From Alteromonadaceae bacterium (GTDB lineage Bacteria; Pseudomonadota; Gammaproteobacteria; Enterobacterales; Alteromonadaceae), in assembly GCA_016765535.1 (NCBI GenBank), contig JAESPQ010000123.1:880-64879 (forward strand): a stretch of 64,000 nucleotides of DNA. Direction: 5' to 3'. Within the stretch, counting starts at the first letter, position 1. Each line of letters starts with the position of its first letter. Below the pieces are notes generated by a model, which was not told the DNA's origin, did no database searches, and was given only the letters and a program-made list of their open reading frames with translations. Positions 39,442 to 48,230 of this stretch are shown here, in pieces. The position numbers were made by a program, and so were the translations under genes.

Positions 39442-39526
39442 GCCGGTGTGATGAAATTGGTATACATGGTTGATTCAAAATCAACTGCCTTCGGGCGTGG
39501 CGGTTCGAGTCCGCCCACCGGTACCA
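39442..39526 (+). tRNA. tRNA-Leu(CAA), complete, carried just inside the island's left end
   Basis: GCCGGTGTGATGAAATTGGTATACATGGTTGATTCAAAATCAACTGCCTTCGGGCGTGGCGGTTCGAGTCCGCCCACCGGTACCA, 85 nt. Relative to the split host copy it has compensatory D-stem (ATG/CAT) and anticodon-stem (GTTGA/TCAAC) changes. Confidence 0.9.
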
Positions 39527-39535
39527 CTAATAACA

Positions 39536-42862: not shown

Positions 42863-43435
42863 CTAAAGCAAATTAGCCGCATTTAACAAAGTAGTTGGCG
42901 ATGTGGCTAAATACCTCGCCGTTGTTTGTATGTTGGCGTGGCCTGCTAATTCTTTTAGAATATGTATGCCAACGCCTTTATCAGCCAAGCCAGTTAAAAA
43001 ACTTCTTCTGCCACTATGGCTTGTGGCACTTTCAATTCCCGCATCTTCAAATATCGTCTTAATAATACTAACCATCGAATTTGGCGTAATAGCACAGCCT
43101 TTTTGACTGCGCAGTAATGGCGTGGTGCGCTTTAACTCACCTAATCCCATTTCTACATAATAAGCCTGTAATGCTGCGGCTAATTTATCATTGACGGCAA
43201 ACACACGACCCTTTTTGCCTTTTGTCTGTGCGGCACTCAAATTGACCATGGTTTTAACTTCACCGCTAACACTAAAAATATCACCAATAACAAGTGCGGC
43301 TATTTCTTTAGCCCTAAGCCCTGCTAAAAATGATAACTGTAAGGCAAGGCAGTTGCGTAAACTGTGGCGACCTGAGTTTGCTATGGCTAATGCACGCTTA
43401 AATTCATTACTTGATAACACTTTTGCTTGTTTCAT
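42863..43435 (-). CDS. catalytic-domain-only tyrosine recombinase (190 aa)
   Basis: GLRAKEI (Arg I), TKGKK (Lys), SHSGRRSF (HxxR), AGHANIQTTARYL (His/Tyr). No N-terminal core-binding domain. Confidence 0.8.
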   Translation of the reverse strand: MKQAKVLSSNEFKRALAIANSGRHSLRNCLALQLSFLAGLRAKEIAALVIGDIFSVSGEVKTMVNLSAAQTKGKKGRVFAVNDKLAAALQAYYVEMGLGELKRTTPLLRSQKGCAITPNSMVSIIKTIFEDAGIESATSHSGRRSFLTGLADKGVGIHILKELAGHANIQTTARYLATSPTTLLNAANLL

Positions 43436-43625
43436 CTATTTGCTGCCTTGTTTGCTAATAACCACTCTTTCACTGGCATTTATAGTAAATGATTGGATTA
43501 AATACGGCAGCCTTTTTGATTAGGTTTAATCGAGTAATGATTTCATCGCCTTAGCGCATAATCCAATCTTTTGTATATTTCCTGTGATTATTGAATGACT
43601 CATAAATAGGGTAAAGGGAGCGAGC

Positions 43626-43940
43626 ATGTACTTTTACGAAATACTAGAATCCAATTACCAACATAAGAAAAAGCAACTTACTGAAGCATTGAGTAGGGAA
43701 GAACTACAGAACAATGATTATTATGAACTCGGGGCTGAAAAAATAACATTACGCCATATTCATAATTTACGAAAATCTAAAGACCACGCAGACAGAGAAA
43801 AGAAAAAGCGGCTAGAGTTTTTACCTACTATGTATGGTCTAGAAGGGTCTTTGACCAATGACCAAAAAGTGGACTTAGAAAAGGCTAGAATGGATAATGA
43901 AACCAAGTTAAGTATAGAGCGCATCAAAGCATTGCAATGA
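43626..43940 (+). CDS. hypothetical charged coiled-coil protein
   Basis: 104 aa with AGGGAG RBS 7 nt upstream of the ATG. Convergent with the RT gene. Confidence 0.5.
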   Translation: MYFYEILESNYQHKKKQLTEALSREELQNNDYYELGAEKITLRHIHNLRKSKDHADREKKKRLEFLPTMYGLEGSLTNDQKVDLEKARMDNETKLSIERIKALQ

Positions 43941-43967
43941 GGAGATAAATAAAAACTTAACTACTCC

Positions 43968-44930
43968 TTAATAAGGTGTTGGGGTTTTGTGATTTCGAAT
44001 GCTTCGTGCCTTATCTTTAAATTTTGGTTCTATAGCGGAGAGTGAGTTAAGTCTGCCTAGGAGCCTATTTTTTAGGGTTTCTGGCATATAAGGGGTGTCT
44101 TTGAGGATTTTCCATTGTTCTATATCTTGATAGACATTTCTGTGCTGTTCGTTTTTAACAAATTGTTTGCCGTCTTTCAGTATGACGCCTGTAATTACCT
44201 TTGCATCATCCTTGGCGTATAGAACCGTTTTTACCGGATGTATTATATGCCCGTGACGTTCAACAATTCTCTTAATTGTTGATATAAATAATTTATTTAA
44301 TTTATCCCCTGAAAAAGTTATATCATCAACATAAACAGACATTTTTATATCATGCTTTACTGCTATTTTTTCTAATTCCAAAAACATCCCAATATTAGCC
44401 CACAAAGCCAAAGGCATACTTATTCTGCTACCTGTTGGAAGATGCTCATTATAGGTGCAAATTTTTGATAATATGTCAGATACATCTGAAGAACACTTCA
44501 TCTTTCTATTGAAAAAGTTAAATAAATGAGTCCTAGAGGTCGATGGGAAAAAAGAACGGATATCAGTTGTTAATACTTTATGGTGCCCTATATGGATGCG
44601 CGCATTCGTAATATGTGAGTGCTTCGCTCTACCAGAATGTACAAAATCTGGTATTTTTATCCGACACAAGAGACTGGCAATTCTCGTATGGACTTTATCT
44701 AACTCAAGGTTCGGGTGCTCAATTATCCGTTTTTTACCATTACTATTTACTTGCTCAAATACATTGTAATTGTCAGTATTTTTAATTAGAGCATTTAAAG
44801 TTACAGGTTCAAGTAAAAGTAAAGCCGCAAGTTTACGTTTAGTTGTTAGTTTATATAAAGGAGAGTCAGAAATTTCGTATGCTTTGTTTAATGTTTTAAT
44901 CTTAAACTTGGGTCTTTTTTGTTTCTTCAC
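43968..44930 (-). CDS. retron-type reverse transcriptase (GTG start inside the HTH gene)
   Basis: TTDIRSFFPS (motif A), LPTGSRISMPLA (motif B), YVDDITFS (motif C). Retron-associated signatures ITNARIH (NAxxH) and KVITGVIL (VTG-like). 320 aa with no extra domains. Confidence 0.85.
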   Translation of the reverse strand: MKKQKRPKFKIKTLNKAYEISDSPLYKLTTKRKLAALLLLEPVTLNALIKNTDNYNVFEQVNSNGKKRIIEHPNLELDKVHTRIASLLCRIKIPDFVHSGRAKHSHITNARIHIGHHKVLTTDIRSFFPSTSRTHLFNFFNRKMKCSSDVSDILSKICTYNEHLPTGSRISMPLALWANIGMFLELEKIAVKHDIKMSVYVDDITFSGDKLNKLFISTIKRIVERHGHIIHPVKTVLYAKDDAKVITGVILKDGKQFVKNEQHRNVYQDIEQWKILKDTPYMPETLKNRLLGRLNSLSAIEPKFKDKARSIRNHKTPTPY

Positions 44931-45213
44931 GCTCAGTTACCCATTCCATGATATTTAATATCTTTGCTGCAAAAAAACGTTTGAATTTTTCTGGTATTTT
45001 TTTCTTGTCTTCTAATGACTCTGAAAAGAAAACTAATGAAGACATAGGTATATCAAATTGCTTTGAATATTTTTCGAGCAATTCTACACTTGCTGGTTTT
45101 TTACCAGATTCAATTTCACTCAAATAAGATTTAGAGATAGCAAGACTTTCGGCTAACTCAACTTGTTTTAAATTATGAAATTGTCTAATAATCTTTAATG
45201 CTTTATTTATCAT
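44902..45213 (-). CDS. XRE-family helix-turn-helix protein
   Basis: LKQVELAESLAISKSYLSEIESGKK, a canonical HTH_XRE. AAGGA RBS. Its 3' end overlaps the RT start by 29 nt. Confidence 0.85.
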   Translation of the reverse strand: MINKALKIIRQFHNLKQVELAESLAISKSYLSEIESGKKPASVELLEKYSKQFDIPMSSLVFFSESLEDKKKIPEKFKRFFAAKILNIMEWVTEREETKKTQV

Positions 45214-45229
45214 GTGTATATTCCTTAAA

Positions 45230-45265
45230 AACTAAGGGGAACACTTGATATGAGCGCCCTTAGTT
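45230..45265 (-). promoter_or_regulatory. 9 bp-stem palindrome between the small ORF and the HTH gene (attenuator or operator candidate)
   Basis: AACTAAGGG (45230-45238) pairs with CCCTTAGTT (45257-45265) around an 18 nt loop. On the minus strand it is followed by TTTTT and the HTH RBS. Confidence 0.5.
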
Positions 45266-45413
45266 AACCGAAACAATTTAATAACCTCCAAATCCAATAC
45301 CCAACTCTCATTAAGAGTTTGATAGCAGTCCAGAGTTTTCGTCGTTTCTTCTTCTTTAGGTCTTCAGTATCAAGTGCCTGCCAATAATCATTAATTCTTT
45401 TTTGCATTTTCAT
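45264..45413 (-). CDS. small ORF (about 47-49 aa) with basic centre and hydrophobic Trp-rich C-terminal tail
   Basis: MKMQKRINDYWQALDTEDLKKKKRRKLWTAIKLLMRVGYWIWRLLNCFG. GGGAG lies 7 nt before the second ATG. The track's longer version starts at a TTG. Confidence 0.35.
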   Translation of the reverse strand: MKMQKRINDYWQALDTEDLKKKKRRKLWTAIKLLMRVGYWIWRLLNCFG

Positions 45414-45663
45414 GCTCCCATATTTACTGTTTCGCAAAATTGCTAGCAGTTTCGCCCAAATATAGGTGAGAGTTATTGGCAAATACCCCTCGTTTTACAC
45501 ACCGGGTTCGCCCGCGGTGTGTGTCCCCTACCAATCTTGCTACATAGTTAAGTTAAGTTATCTGATGAGCACATGTGGGGGAAAAAGGTTAGAGAATTCA
45601 AGATTCTCCTCGAATGCAAGCATTCAGTTCTAAATGGCGATTTTCTCTCTTTTCTTAATGACG
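45414..45663 (-). ncRNA. candidate structured leader / RT-associated ncRNA
   Basis: Downstream of a near-consensus promoter. It holds four consecutive hairpins, including the GC-rich ACACACC-GGG-TTCG-CCC-GC-GGTGTGT stem (45497-45522), and an (AGTTA)3 tract at 45546-45560. No ORF with an RBS. Confidence 0.35.
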
Positions 45664-45669
45664 CTTAAG

Positions 45670-45698
45670 ATACTAGAGGTAGTTTTCGTCGATGTCAA
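45670..45698 (-). promoter_or_regulatory. sigma70-type promoter for the small ORF-HTH-RT unit
   Basis: The minus strand reads TTGACA (45698-45693), a 17 nt spacer, then TAGTAT (45675-45670). Confidence 0.6.
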
Positions 45699-45726
45699 AT
45701 AAATTCGCAAATAGCGAACTTTTTGT

Positions 45727-46623
45727 TTAAGAAAAGCAATCAATATGTGAGATATGTATGAGGTTTTCTTTTATGCCTAAGTATATAAGCGCACTTAAGT
45801 GAGAGTGCTCATCTTCGGCATCATAGTAACTTAAATGCCATTGCACGGATTGTTTGTCGATATTGTTTACGATATTGGCAAAGTACTTAATATCTACTTC
45901 TGATATAGAGTGACCTAATACGTAAATATGCCTTATTGAATTTAACTTTTTAAAAAACAATTCGTTATCATTAATTAAGTCTTGAGCAGGTTTGAATGTT
46001 TTTTTAAAATAATCATCTACAATTCCATACCCCTCCATTACTCTAGTATCCCAGTCCTCATCAAATTGTATGTTAGCATTTTCAGTATAAGTTTTTGATG
46101 ATGACCAATCGTGCCCTAATACCAACTCACTATCCTTGTTTATTGCTTTGCCGTGTATATGTAATATTCGCTCGCATGGAACATCATAAATTTTATTTAA
46201 TGTATCGGTATAATTGAATGATAGAAAAAAAGCAGACGGTGAAATAACTTTAATTTTTTTCTGGGTTGGTATTCGTAATTCAAGTACCCAGTTAAGTAGG
46301 TGCCTTTTTAATTCTGAGGACAATGAGTCAGTGTATCGTTCAACCTCTATTTGAAAACTATGATGCCCACTATCACTCCAGTTTTCATCGCTGTATGATG
46401 CTAGATACTGCATTGCATCATCGATTAATGTATCAACATCCACACTTGATAATGCCGATTCAAGATTATTCCAGTTCTCTGAAATCATTAAATATTTTTC
46501 AATTGAGTCAGCAACATCGCAATCGATTAATTTGATGTATTCTTTAAAATCACTATAACGTGATTTTATTCCGTGATGAATATCGAAACCGTTACCTAAA
46601 ATATATAAAATATCATTCTGCAT
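45727..46623 (-). CDS. AbiH-family abortive infection protein
   Basis: MQNDILYILGNGFDIHHGIKSRYSDFKEYI, FNYTDT, HIHG and YVLGHSISEVDIKYF match the AbiH signature. I set the start at the ATG at 46621-46623, which forms a TAATG overlap with the integrase stop. The track's TTG at 46632 is less likely. Confidence 0.8.
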   Translation of the reverse strand: MQNDILYILGNGFDIHHGIKSRYSDFKEYIKLIDCDVADSIEKYLMISENWNNLESALSSVDVDTLIDDAMQYLASYSDENWSDSGHHSFQIEVERYTDSLSSELKRHLLNWVLELRIPTQKKIKVISPSAFFLSFNYTDTLNKIYDVPCERILHIHGKAINKDSELVLGHDWSSSKTYTENANIQFDEDWDTRVMEGYGIVDDYFKKTFKPAQDLINDNELFFKKLNSIRHIYVLGHSISEVDIKYFANIVNNIDKQSVQWHLSYYDAEDEHSHLSALIYLGIKENLIHISHIDCFS

Positions 46624-47912
46624 TACAGGCAACCACGTTTTTTATATTCAGCATTCCATTCATTCATCCATTTAGCCGTATCTTTGGCTAACTCTGCTTT
46701 TTCTTCTTCTGTATCTTGCACTATTAGTTTAACGGGGTCGGTATTTGTAAAATCAACACCCGATAGTTCATTAGTAAACATTTCAGGCATTACATGGCTG
46801 TAATGTTGCTCTAACATTTGAATACTCGTACCACATTGCTTAGCGATAATTTGTGCAGGTAATTGATTCATTAATTGCCATGTGATGTACGTATGCCTTA
46901 AGGAATAAAGTGTACGTTTACCACGTGGTGATTCTTTTAATTCATTCTCAATAATTAATTTATCAAATGCTCTGCTAAGTTCTTTTGTCTTACTGCCATC
47001 TTCTAATTTAAATAAAAGGTCTTTTGGTTTTCTGTTTGGAAAACGCTCTCTTAATCGTTCAAATGCCCACAATACTTCTTCACGGCATACTACTGTTCTA
47101 GCACCCGTGTGCTTTGTGGTTTTGCCTTTGCGAACTGTAATTAAAAATACAATTTTATCGTATTTCTGCCTTAGTTCTATATCACCCCAAGTTAAGTTTT
47201 CCATTTCAGTACCAGGTCTAATACCTGAGTAAACAGCAATATCCATATAGTCTTGTAATAGTTCACGTAACATATGAGTATTTTGTTTTCTGCTATTACC
47301 TATGAAACTAGGTAAGGCTGATATTAATTTTTGATATTCTTCTTTATTAAATGCAGCCTTGCGTTGACCATCAGACCCTGCAGAAGCAGTTAGTCTGGGT
47401 ATTTGAATTGGTAAAATCCACTTGTTTAATAGTGCTTCTTCAAAGACGCGCATCATTGCGGCGTTATGGTTGAGTAGGGTTGATTTGGCAGGTGTACGTT
47501 TTAATTGTTCAATACGCCAAACATCAAATTCTAATAATCGTTGATTATCAATGCTGGTGATATAATTGTTATCAAAGTACGGAATATGATACTTATTTAA
47601 TACGCCGATATAGTCATTGTATGACTGTTTTCCTGTGCCTTGTGCAAGTTGCTGTTGCATACGTTTAATTGCTAAATCAGCAACGCTTTTAAAGCGCTTG
47701 GTATTAATAGGAACGTTATTTTCTAATTTGAGTTTGTATTCGATAAAGTGCTGATGGGCGGCAGGTATTGCTTGTTCTAGGTCTTTCTTTTTTGTAGTCT
47801 TAGTATACCAATTACCATACAACACAAAGCGAGCATACCAGCGTAGGCTGTTTGCTTGTTTATATATGTATAACTCGTCAGTTATATCGTGTCGTGCTAC
47901 TTGTTTACTCAT
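46623..47912 (-). CDS. int: tyrosine-type site-specific integrase (P4-like size, 429 aa)
   Basis: C-terminal catalytic motifs LYSLRHTYITWQL (HxxR) and MLEQHYSHV (Tyr). Adjacent to the attR tRNA fragment. Confidence 0.9.
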   Translation of the reverse strand: MSKQVARHDITDELYIYKQANSLRWYARFVLYGNWYTKTTKKKDLEQAIPAAHQHFIEYKLKLENNVPINTKRFKSVADLAIKRMQQQLAQGTGKQSYNDYIGVLNKYHIPYFDNNYITSIDNQRLLEFDVWRIEQLKRTPAKSTLLNHNAAMMRVFEEALLNKWILPIQIPRLTASAGSDGQRKAAFNKEEYQKLISALPSFIGNSRKQNTHMLRELLQDYMDIAVYSGIRPGTEMENLTWGDIELRQKYDKIVFLITVRKGKTTKHTGARTVVCREEVLWAFERLRERFPNRKPKDLLFKLEDGSKTKELSRAFDKLIIENELKESPRGKRTLYSLRHTYITWQLMNQLPAQIIAKQCGTSIQMLEQHYSHVMPEMFTNELSGVDFTNTDPVKLIVQDTEEEKAELAKDTAKWMNEWNAEYKKRGCL

Positions 47913-48028
47913 ACGTAATTAAAGCACGATTATGGGATTACCGGCAAAGTGTTTACGTAAAGTTTTTGTAAAGTATGTATTAGGGTTTTTATCTGGTTGA
48001 ATTTACGGGGTTATTTTAAGCGCGTTAT

Positions 48029-48082
48029 ATTCAAAATCCGTTGCAGCAATGCGTGGCGGTTCGAGTCCGCCCACCGGTACCA
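48029..48082 (+). pseudogene. 3' half of the disrupted host tRNA-Leu(CAA) (attR side)
   Basis: ATTCAAAATCCGTTGCAGCAATGCGTGGCGGTTCGAGTCCGCCCACCGGTACCA. Joined to 39257-39295 it reconstitutes an 85 nt tRNA-Leu(CAA) with all stems paired. Confidence 0.85.
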
Positions 48083-48230
48083 TTATTTTTAACGATTAGT
48101 CCCTAAAATGACATGGTTTGTTATCTTAGTTTTTTTATTTACTTCCCTTTGTAAATAACCAGCTACCTCCTCCGACCTCTTTGTGTTAAATTAATATTCA
48201 ATCACTCTATTTAAAAATAAAATTAGCACT

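Follow-up and report, generated by a model that had tools for sequence, protein, structure and literature searches.

The minus strand of positions 45414-45663 in the stretch of Alteromonadaceae DNA analyzed here (64,000 nt, referred to as the window) very probably encodes the non-coding 5′ part, an msr-msd region followed by a riboregulator, of the hybrid RNA (hyRNA) of a Type VI retron. We favor this identification because its helices covary across homologous loci, because it carries a pair of direct repeats, because it stands with Type VI genes, and because a model built from the window alone matches the corresponding RNA of Retron-Vpa2. The anatomy, conservation, and covariation of the element, and its homology to the Vpa2 element, were read directly from this and the related loci. 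A preliminary description of the same stretch had proposed a template or a regulatory non-coding RNA (ncRNA), and the comparisons support both proposals, as the RNA appears to hold an msr-msd as well as a riboregulator. That description had not seen that the RNA runs on through a 47-amino-acid (aa) open reading frame (ORF), as expected of a hybrid RNA, nor that a conserved 7-nt direct repeat has one of its copies in the loop of the fourth hairpin. The kind of element is already known, having first been described in preprints of 2025-2026, and by analogy with those systems the present one would be anti-phage.

Read on the minus strand, the region is flanked by the stop codon of an AbiH gene and by the short ORF, and downstream on the same strand come, in order, this 47-aa ORF for SP, a gene for a Cro/C1-type helix-turn-helix (HTH) protein, and a reverse transcriptase (RT) gene. 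The RT (43968-44930, 320 aa, Pfam RVT_1) covers the whole PADLOC profile RT_VI (3.6e-100, 332.8 bits), with RT_III-A as the second-ranked family at 1.7e-44; the best 25 of its 44 PADLOC matches are all retron RT families, and its translation shows YVDD, NAxxH, and ITG motifs. The HTH gene (44902-45213, 103 aa), which scores 6.4e-38 against PADLOC HTH_VI and 3e-11 against Pfam HTH_3, overlaps the RT gene by 29 nt, the RT start lying at 44930. Based on the RT_VI and HTH_VI scores, the classification of Mestre et al. 2020 places the locus among the Type VI retrons, and the RT clade, the HTH gene overlapping the RT gene, and an SP ORF upstream of the HTH gene are all found here. The suggestion that the region occupies the position of an msr-msd ahead of an accessory gene and an RT agrees with these genes and with the alignment to the Vpa2 hyRNA.

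Four consecutive hairpins had been proposed on the minus strand, and all four were recovered both by reading the sequence and with ViennaRNA, which places them in the minimum free energy (MFE) structure and in the centroid structure. Hairpin 1 (H1, 45611-45626, U-GAAUG-CUUG-CAUUC-G) is a 6-bp stem, UGAAUG/CAUUCG, with a CUUG loop, and hairpin 2 (H2, 45591-45609, GGAGAAU-CUUGA-AUUCUCU) is closed by an invariant G·U pair; both are msr-like. Hairpin 3 (H3, 45524-45582), the candidate main part of the msd, is an imperfect UCCCC.AC.../...GU.GGGGA helix with a C-run/G-run base, whose apex carries (TAACT)3 at 45546-45560, confirmed as 3.0 copies with a 100% match by Tandem Repeats Finder. Hairpin 4 (H4, 45497-45522, ACACACCG-C-GG / CC-CGGUGUGU) is GC-rich and exposes a GCGAA loop within GGGCGAA. 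The local GC peak noted earlier in an AT-rich background was also found, with a GC content of 0.48-0.49 at 45450-45599 against 0.27-0.31 in the flanks. H3 and H4 would be the msd, and IR1, helix L, and the riboregulator, all described below, tie this template to the toxin mRNA; by analogy with known retrons, H1 and H2 would bind the RT and, with a closing helix termed P0, would form the msr-like part.

Conservation of these hairpins was assessed in 138 loci with RT relatives (34-70% identity) taken from genomes, metagenomes, and sequencing-run assemblies; the metagenome scan gave no match when a single RT protein was the query and gave matches when an alignment was used. Two alignments were compared for H1 and H2, one made with MAFFT (49 loci) and one based on a covariance model of the window sequence only (80 nt), which matched 56 loci. 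H1 is paired in 92.8% and 98.8% of cells in the two alignments, respectively, and H2 in 95.7% and 96.8%, with four of the six H1 pairs and five of the seven H2 pairs changing on both sides in the model-based one and numerous two-sided changes in the MAFFT one as well. Across the combined H1+H2 alignment, 97.7% of cells are paired, compared to 81% in shuffles and 39-57% with slid partners, and RNAalifold on the MAFFT alignment predicted H1 and H2 de novo and no other hairpin. The stems of H3 and H4 are unrelated in sequence between loci and MAFFT aligns them inconsistently, so its pairing counts there (10-67%) were left unused. H4 was examined without an alignment instead: the 44 nt around GCGA fold as a hairpin of ~8-13 bp in 49/49 loci (mean −18 kcal/mol, z = −3.5), even though the stems share no sequence, and in the model-based alignment H4 is 95.3% paired with 8/8 pairs changing on both sides. 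The H3 segment varies from 47 to 134 nt over 52 loci with no sequence conservation, yet it is a single hairpin in 48 of them.

Downstream of H4 lies the riboregulator hairpin (45415-45466), formed by an outer stem, R1, of CCUAUAUUU and AAAUAUGGG, and an inner stem, R2 (45426-45450). The R1 strand AAAUAUGGG takes in the first three bases of the SP Shine-Dalgarno sequence, GGGAG (45415-45419), and the SP start codon (AUG, 45405-45407) sits in a small hairpin, GCAU-GAAA-AUGC (45404-45415), so that the SP start signals are buried as in an hyRNA. The start-codon hairpin is part of the MFE structure, and its comparative support is weaker (74.6% paired) than that of R1 (93.3% over 87 distinct sequences) or R2 (83-88%), in both of which each pair changes on both sides. 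The sequence GGGCGAA occurs twice, once as direct repeat 1 (DR1, 45507-45513) in the H4 loop and once as direct repeat 2 (DR2, 45451-45457) among the unpaired bases that separate R1 from R2. The 5-nt cores of the two repeats are identical within a locus in 57 of 74 distinct loci, compared to 35 ± 2.3 on permutation, and GGCGA, GGTGA, GACGA, AGCGA, and TGCGA all occur as cores at both sites. The SP ORF itself (45264-45407, MQKRINDYWQALDTEDLKKKKRRKLWTAIKLLMRVGYWIWRLLNCFG) is the coding part of the hybrid RNA and encodes a candidate toxic effector with a basic center and a hydrophobic, W-rich C-terminus. Its product shares 47% identity with the SP encoded at a Yersinia aldovae locus (E = 2e-7) and, over 33 residues, 36% with that of Vpa2 (E = 0.006).

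A second single-sequence model of 166 nt (45367-45532), comprising H4, helix L, R1, R2, and the start-codon hairpin, was used for this 3′ module, and it matched 89 of the 100 loci searched, in all cases over its full length, on the strand that encodes the RT, and immediately before the HTH gene; a homologous small ORF stands at the equivalent position in 89/89 of them. The element is therefore present in most of the syntenic RT loci. In the resulting alignment, 88.5% of cells are paired, compared to 56% in shuffles and 36-41% with slid partners, the covariation score is 0.73 against 0.20 and 0.06-0.09, and all 41 pairs of H4, L, R1, and R2 change on both sides.

Three long-range helices connect the parts. 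In helix L, UUUGCCAAUAA (45473-45483) pairs with SP codons 7-10, UUAUUGGCAGG (45377-45387); its 11 pairs are 85.4% paired and all of them change on both sides, with variants such as GCCAAUAA/UUAUUGGC, GCUGGU/ACCAGC, AACCAAAAA/UUUUUGGUU, and GCUGUUCA/UGAACAGC. The inverted repeat IR1, AAAACGAGGGG (45486-45496), pairs with IR2, CCCCUUAGUUUUU (45227-45239), which lies beyond the SP stop codon in the region of a terminator-like hairpin and U-run. This pairing appears in the MFE structure of the full transcript, and strands from the same locus form a more stable duplex (mean −11.9 kcal/mol) than permuted partners (−9.4 ± 0.23, 0/5000). Finally, the P0 strands GAGAG (45645-45649) and CUCUC (45468-45472) form an a1/a2-like closing helix around H1-H4, with the conserved motif UCGCC at 45636-45640 after the 5′ strand and a near-invariant ACTCTCA motif at the 3′ strand. 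Seven covarying variants of P0 were found (GAGAG/CUCUC, GGGAG/CUCCC, GAGAU/AUCUC, GGGAU/AUCCC, GAGCG/CGCUC, GGAUG/CAUCC, and GAGAA/UUCUC), and here too the duplex within a locus (mean −7.8 kcal/mol) is more stable than with permuted partners (−5.85 ± 0.21, 0/5000), so the a1/a2 inverted repeats that enclose the msr-msd of a canonical retron have a counterpart in this RNA. Together with H1, H2, H4, R1, and R2, these helices give the covariation that the preliminary description had named as its check. P0 crosses the other two, as the order along the transcript is P0-5′, IR1, L-5′, P0-3′, L-3′, IR2, and since all three are comparatively supported, the RNA must be pseudoknotted or adopt two states.

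The minus-strand promoter reported upstream was found as a sigma-70-type site, TTGACA-17-TAGTAT (45670-45698), which is the sole promoter-like site on either strand of 45100-45800. Its spacing predicts a transcription start near 45663, and this one promoter (45698-45670) would drive an hyRNA transcript of ~440 nt. A 6-bp hairpin, UCUUAA-GCGUCA-UUAAGA (45653-45670), overlaps the −10 region and the predicted start, is probably incompletely transcribed, and was excluded from the element. The terminator-like hairpin with its U-run (45239-45259) follows the SP stop codon directly and shares positions with IR2. This hairpin may define where the abundant hyRNA ends and limit how far transcription continues into the HTH and RT genes.

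Two further ideas about this region concern the plus strand, whose UUCG loop might belong to an antisense RNA against the mini-ORF region, and the (TAACT)n tract, which might template a repeat-synthesizing RT; we regard both as extremely improbable. The plus strand does fold about as well as the minus strand (z = −2.28 for the 250 nt), but no promoter-like site was found on it in 45100-45800, and the loop is conserved as the motif GGCGA, which recurs, within GGGCGAA, on the same (minus) strand. Moreover, invariant G·U or U·G closing pairs occur in H2 and H1 in 55/55 and 51/55 loci, and many U·G pairs occur in R1 and L, all of which become A·C mismatches on the plus strand. Similarly, (TAACT)3 is a perfect tandem repeat, but it lies in the hypervariable apex of H3 and no TAACT repeat occurs in the closest relatives, L126 and L046 (70% and 65% RT identity; L numbers denote loci of the survey), or in any other inspected, while the RT scores as a retron Type VI enzyme and not as one of the defense-associated reverse transcriptase (DRT) type. 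A DRT2/DRT9-like RT that templates repeats or concatemers was rejected on the same PADLOC ranking and on the lack of conservation of (TAACT)3.

Two experimentally studied lineages, described in two preprints, provide the comparison. Retron-Vpa2 produces an hyRNA of ~470 nt in which an msr-msd is joined to the translationally repressed ORF of the toxin SP and inverted repeats connect the 3′ end with the first arm; the RT, the HTH protein, and this hyRNA form a complex (Zhang et al., bioRxiv 10.1101/2025.10.22.683967). According to the same preprint, its multicopy single-stranded DNA (msDNA) consists of 63 nt copied from a long stem-loop, to which a 5′ stem-loop of 23 nt is added under RecBCD inhibition; SP translation requires the 23-nt stem-loop, and the conserved 7-nt direct repeats lie in the msd loop and in the riboregulator loop, the authors proposing that complementary DNA (cDNA) of the first anneals to the second. 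Basal msDNA is undetectable there, activation depends on msDNA, and a dead RT is non-toxic.

With filters off, our window-only model aligned over its full length to positions 1866-2048 of a V. parahaemolyticus locus, L137 (32.7 bits, E = 1.2e-7); under default filters, the same model missed the Vpa2 loci. We take L137 to be Vpa2 because its 55-aa SP carries K15, I39, F43, and F45, which are the positions that the Vpa2 study altered by mutation. [quoted passage not shown] H3 occupies the place at which Vpa2 has its mapped 63-nt msDNA region, on the long stem-loop (bioRxiv 10.1101/2025.10.22.683967), and H4 would template the 5′-terminal stem-loop of the full-length msDNA; H3 and H4 together span 86 nt (45497-45582), near the 86 nt of full-length Vpa2 msDNA, a correspondence of position only. 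The repeats are GGACGAA twice in Vpa2 and GGGCGAA twice here, with cores differing by one base. On the other hand, the RTs are only about 51% identical, the SPs (55 aa in Vpa2, 47 aa here) are weakly similar, the promoter palindrome is GTTGCA/TGCAAC in Vpa2 and GTTCGC/GCGAAC here, and Vpa2 has been studied experimentally whereas the present locus is known from its DNA alone.

The second lineage is that of Retron-Sen3 and cl2075. The ncRNA of Sen3 is conserved, contains an internal stem-loop that is both long and variable, sequesters the SP RBS, and pairs IR1 with IR2 around SP; the RT-dependent single-stranded DNA (ssDNA) of Sen3 is debranched, ssDNA and SP are constitutive, the HTH protein is the antitoxin, and RecBCD inhibition is the trigger (Garcia-Rodriguez et al., bioRxiv 10.64898/2026.04.27.721009). 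An inverted repeat equivalent to IR1/IR2 is described in this preprint and in that on Vpa2. The present locus resembles this lineage in its several stem-loops within ~280 nt upstream of SP, in the long internal stem-loop with a non-conserved center, in the sequestered RBS, in the IR1-IR2 pairing around the SP ORF, in RNA structure inside the SP coding region, and in an SP that is closer to that of Yersinia aldovae, from a genus of this lineage, than to that of Vpa2. It differs in that H3 is 59 nt compared to ~166 nt for SL3 of Sen3, and in that the RTs nearest to its own (57-70% identity) come from marine sources, Shewanella and metagenomes, and not from Enterobacterales. For this retron, a Sen3-type variant, with constitutive ssDNA and SP and the HTH protein as antitoxin, appears about equally likely as a Vpa2-type mechanism: the Vpa2 model is favored by the riboregulator, by the match of the two repeat copies at 7/7 positions, and by their covariation across loci, and the Sen3 model by an SP that is more similar to the Yersinia type (47% identity) than to that of Vpa2.

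It is also conceivable that the region is an ordinary structured 5′ leader or attenuator of an SP-HTH-RT operon, regulating transcription or translation and never copied by the RT, and we judge this to be unlikely. The RBS-sequestering hairpin and the terminator-like hairpin with its U-run after SP are classic cis-regulatory features, and six Type VI retrons reportedly gave no detectable msDNA when grown under standard conditions (Khan et al. 2025, cited in 10.64898/2026.04.27.721009). However, the homologous region of Vpa2 is a mapped msDNA template and Sen3 makes RT-dependent ssDNA. H3, which is hypervariable in sequence and length and still kept as a hairpin, is typical of an msd and odd for an attenuator, and a covarying, a1/a2-like P0 has no obvious role in a simple leader.

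Conversely, the RNA could be a canonical msr-msd, giving abundant 2′-5′-branched msDNA that serves as the antitoxin while the effector stays inactive until phage infection; this we consider highly improbable. It shares with classical retrons such as Retron-Eco1/Ec86 a promoter-proximal structured RNA flanked by complementary strands (a1/a2, here P0), conserved msr hairpins, and a long, variable msd hairpin that would be copied by a retron-clade RT, and the RT has the retron motifs NAxxH and (V/I)TG. In contrast, the RNA here continues into a toxin ORF and pairs with it, and a toxin ORF embedded in the same structured RNA through L and IR1/IR2 is not canonical. For Type VI, the preprints report either that basal msDNA is undetectable and activation depends on msDNA (Vpa2) or that ssDNA is constitutive and debranched, the antitoxin being a protein (Sen3); the dead RT of Vpa2 is non-toxic, and in the Vpa2 study msDNA activates the toxin rather than neutralizing it. 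The msr-msd and riboregulator of a Type VI hyRNA also resemble toehold-type riboregulators, as RBS and start codon lie in hairpins and the exposed DR2 is placed for binding by a complementary nucleic acid; unlike in toehold or other trans-activated switches, the proposed activator would be DNA reverse-transcribed from the same RNA and not a separate small RNA.

Several observations weigh against the identification of an hyRNA. Thermodynamic folding, one of the checks suggested beforehand, gave a divided answer: the 250-nt minus-strand fold is marginal (z = −1.92, with 8/200 shuffles equally good), while the fold of the full 461-nt transcript stands out clearly (z = −3.54, 0/100 shuffles as good) and favors structure. 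Thermodynamics alone is weak; the comparative evidence is decisive, and it has biases of its own. Model-based alignments lean toward the structure of their own model, hence the alignment-free treatment of H4, and relatedness among the sequences inflates the shuffle and permutation statistics to an uncertain degree, so that they should not be read as probabilities. R2 is degenerate here compared to the closest relatives: a third partial copy of the repeat, GCGAAAC (45429-45435, within UUUUGCGAAAC), replaces its 3′ strand, at a position where L126 and L046 have a clean 6-8-bp stem. P0, L, and IR1/IR2 cannot share one nested fold. No branching G is assignable from the sequence here, a further difference from a canonical retron. 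Lastly, the two accounts on which the functional comparison draws, both of them preprints, conflict, msDNA controlling translation in Vpa2 and ssDNA and SP being constitutive in Sen3.

Transcription, msDNA synthesis, triggers, and SP toxicity in this organism are proposed by analogy with the preprints, and the following sequence of events would apply if the locus behaved as Vpa2 does. The transcript would carry, in order, the P0 5′ strand, H1-H2, the H3-H4 msd, IR1, the riboregulator hairpin, and the SP ORF, and the RT, the HTH protein, and the hyRNA would form a complex in which reverse transcription is held low. A phage that inhibits RecBCD or supplies recombination proteins would allow cDNA copied from H4 and H3 to accumulate. 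The 5′ stem-loop of this cDNA, bearing the complement of GGGCGAA, would then anneal to the second repeat, and the annealing would open the riboregulator, so that SP could be translated and the infected cell would stop growing.

The HTH protein may also act on the promoter. A palindrome, GUUCGC-UAUUU-GCGAAU (45703-45719), abuts the upstream side of the −35 hexamer and probably serves as operator for the Cro/C1-type HTH protein of the retron. By our reading, about 30 of the 52 distinct homologous loci, L002, L005, L046, L047, L126, L130, and L133 among them, have a palindrome of the form (A)GTTCGC-N5-GCGAAC(T) at the equivalent place. Several loci carry another half-site, (A/T)AGCGAAC, located between the −35 and −10 elements. 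In E. coli-type and Vibrio loci, the palindrome is different or missing. Term searches for an operator or palindrome found no mention in the Sen3 preprint, and there is none in the sections of the Vpa2 preprint consulted. The half-site GCGAA(C/U) resembles the H4-loop repeat GGGCGAAC (45703-45708 and 45507-45514, respectively), and we rejected the idea that the GGGCGAA repeats mimic the operator of the HTH protein: clades with GGTGA repeats retain a GCGAAC operator, and Vpa2 has GGACGAA repeats with a GTTGCA/TGCAAC palindrome. The resemblance is probably a coincidence, since operator and repeat do not covary.

A more speculative model, which we think has a small chance of being correct, is a two-state switch in which a P0 "retron" conformer primes reverse transcription and IR1/IR2 and L clamp the toxin ORF in a "locked mRNA" conformer, with reverse transcription or removal of the template by RNase H flipping one into the other. 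In a further speculation, the HTH protein might read one motif both in promoter DNA and in the msDNA or its hybrid with RNA, an idea suggested by the fact that the operator half-site GCGAAC is a hexamer of the H4 loop (GGGCGAAC); if true, this dual reading would couple autoregulation to triggering. The crossing of P0 with L and IR1/IR2, like the operator palindrome, appears to go slightly beyond both preprints.

A reading of raw sequence thus correctly singled out the template RNA of a retron, of a type for which no ncRNA could reportedly be identified in the 2020 classification of Mestre and colleagues. The locus adds a member from a psychrophilic marine bacterium (Colwellia) and ~90 independently aligned loci to the two lineages studied, and the covariation of the repeat copies is a prediction of the proposed model in which cDNA anneals to the riboregulator. 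We suggest annotating the locus as a Type VI retron with an hyRNA and a candidate SP toxin. As things stand, annotation would pass over the 47-aa ORF as well as the intergenic region, and Rfam has no model for this RNA: a search of the whole window at the gathering threshold gave no family match in the region, and a search of 45150-45750 at E up to 10 gave two chance-level matches, both outside 45414-45663.

The retron is carried by an 8.6-kb island at a tRNA-Leu gene of a Colwellia genome. The 3′ half of a tRNA-Leu (CAA) gene at 39473-39529 is repeated 8556 nt away at 48029-48085 (82% identity over 57 nt, with the 3′ part of the repeat almost identical), and the two copies look like the attL and attR of an integrative island of 8.56 kb. 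Its cargo includes RadC, DUF6641, DUF6626, a Rep-like gene, a truncated integrase, the Type VI retron, AbiH, and a full integrase (46623-47912). Positions 43583-47930 are 99.1% identical (38 mismatches in 4348 nt) to Colwellia piezophila ATCC BAA-637 (L001, NZ_KB905161.1), with mismatches clustered at 43585-43963 and 47436-47806, and the similarity ends sharply at 43583, just downstream of the RT gene. The mismatches and this abrupt end indicate that the window comes from a related genome with the same element; the ncRNA is identical in both, and SP has one synonymous difference (45333).

Other features were observed around the retron and its relatives. The AbiH abortive-infection gene (45727-46632, Pfam 2e-67) lies on the same strand and ends 8 nt before the operator palindrome, so that two defense systems are arranged head to tail on the island. 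Just downstream of the RT gene there are a 104-aa plus-strand ORF without a family match (43626-43940) and a 190-aa integrase fragment (42863-43435) that retains the catalytic domain only; similarity to C. piezophila decays in this zone, which suggests a recombination scar. Among the relatives, the Shewanella Mu-like prophage MuM16-1 (L133/L134, MZ568827.1) carries an RT of 57% identity within its structural gene cluster (PMC8541194), and a metagenome contig, L128, has two inverted copies of the RT gene with mirrored neighbor genes, which could be a real inverted duplication or an assembly artifact.

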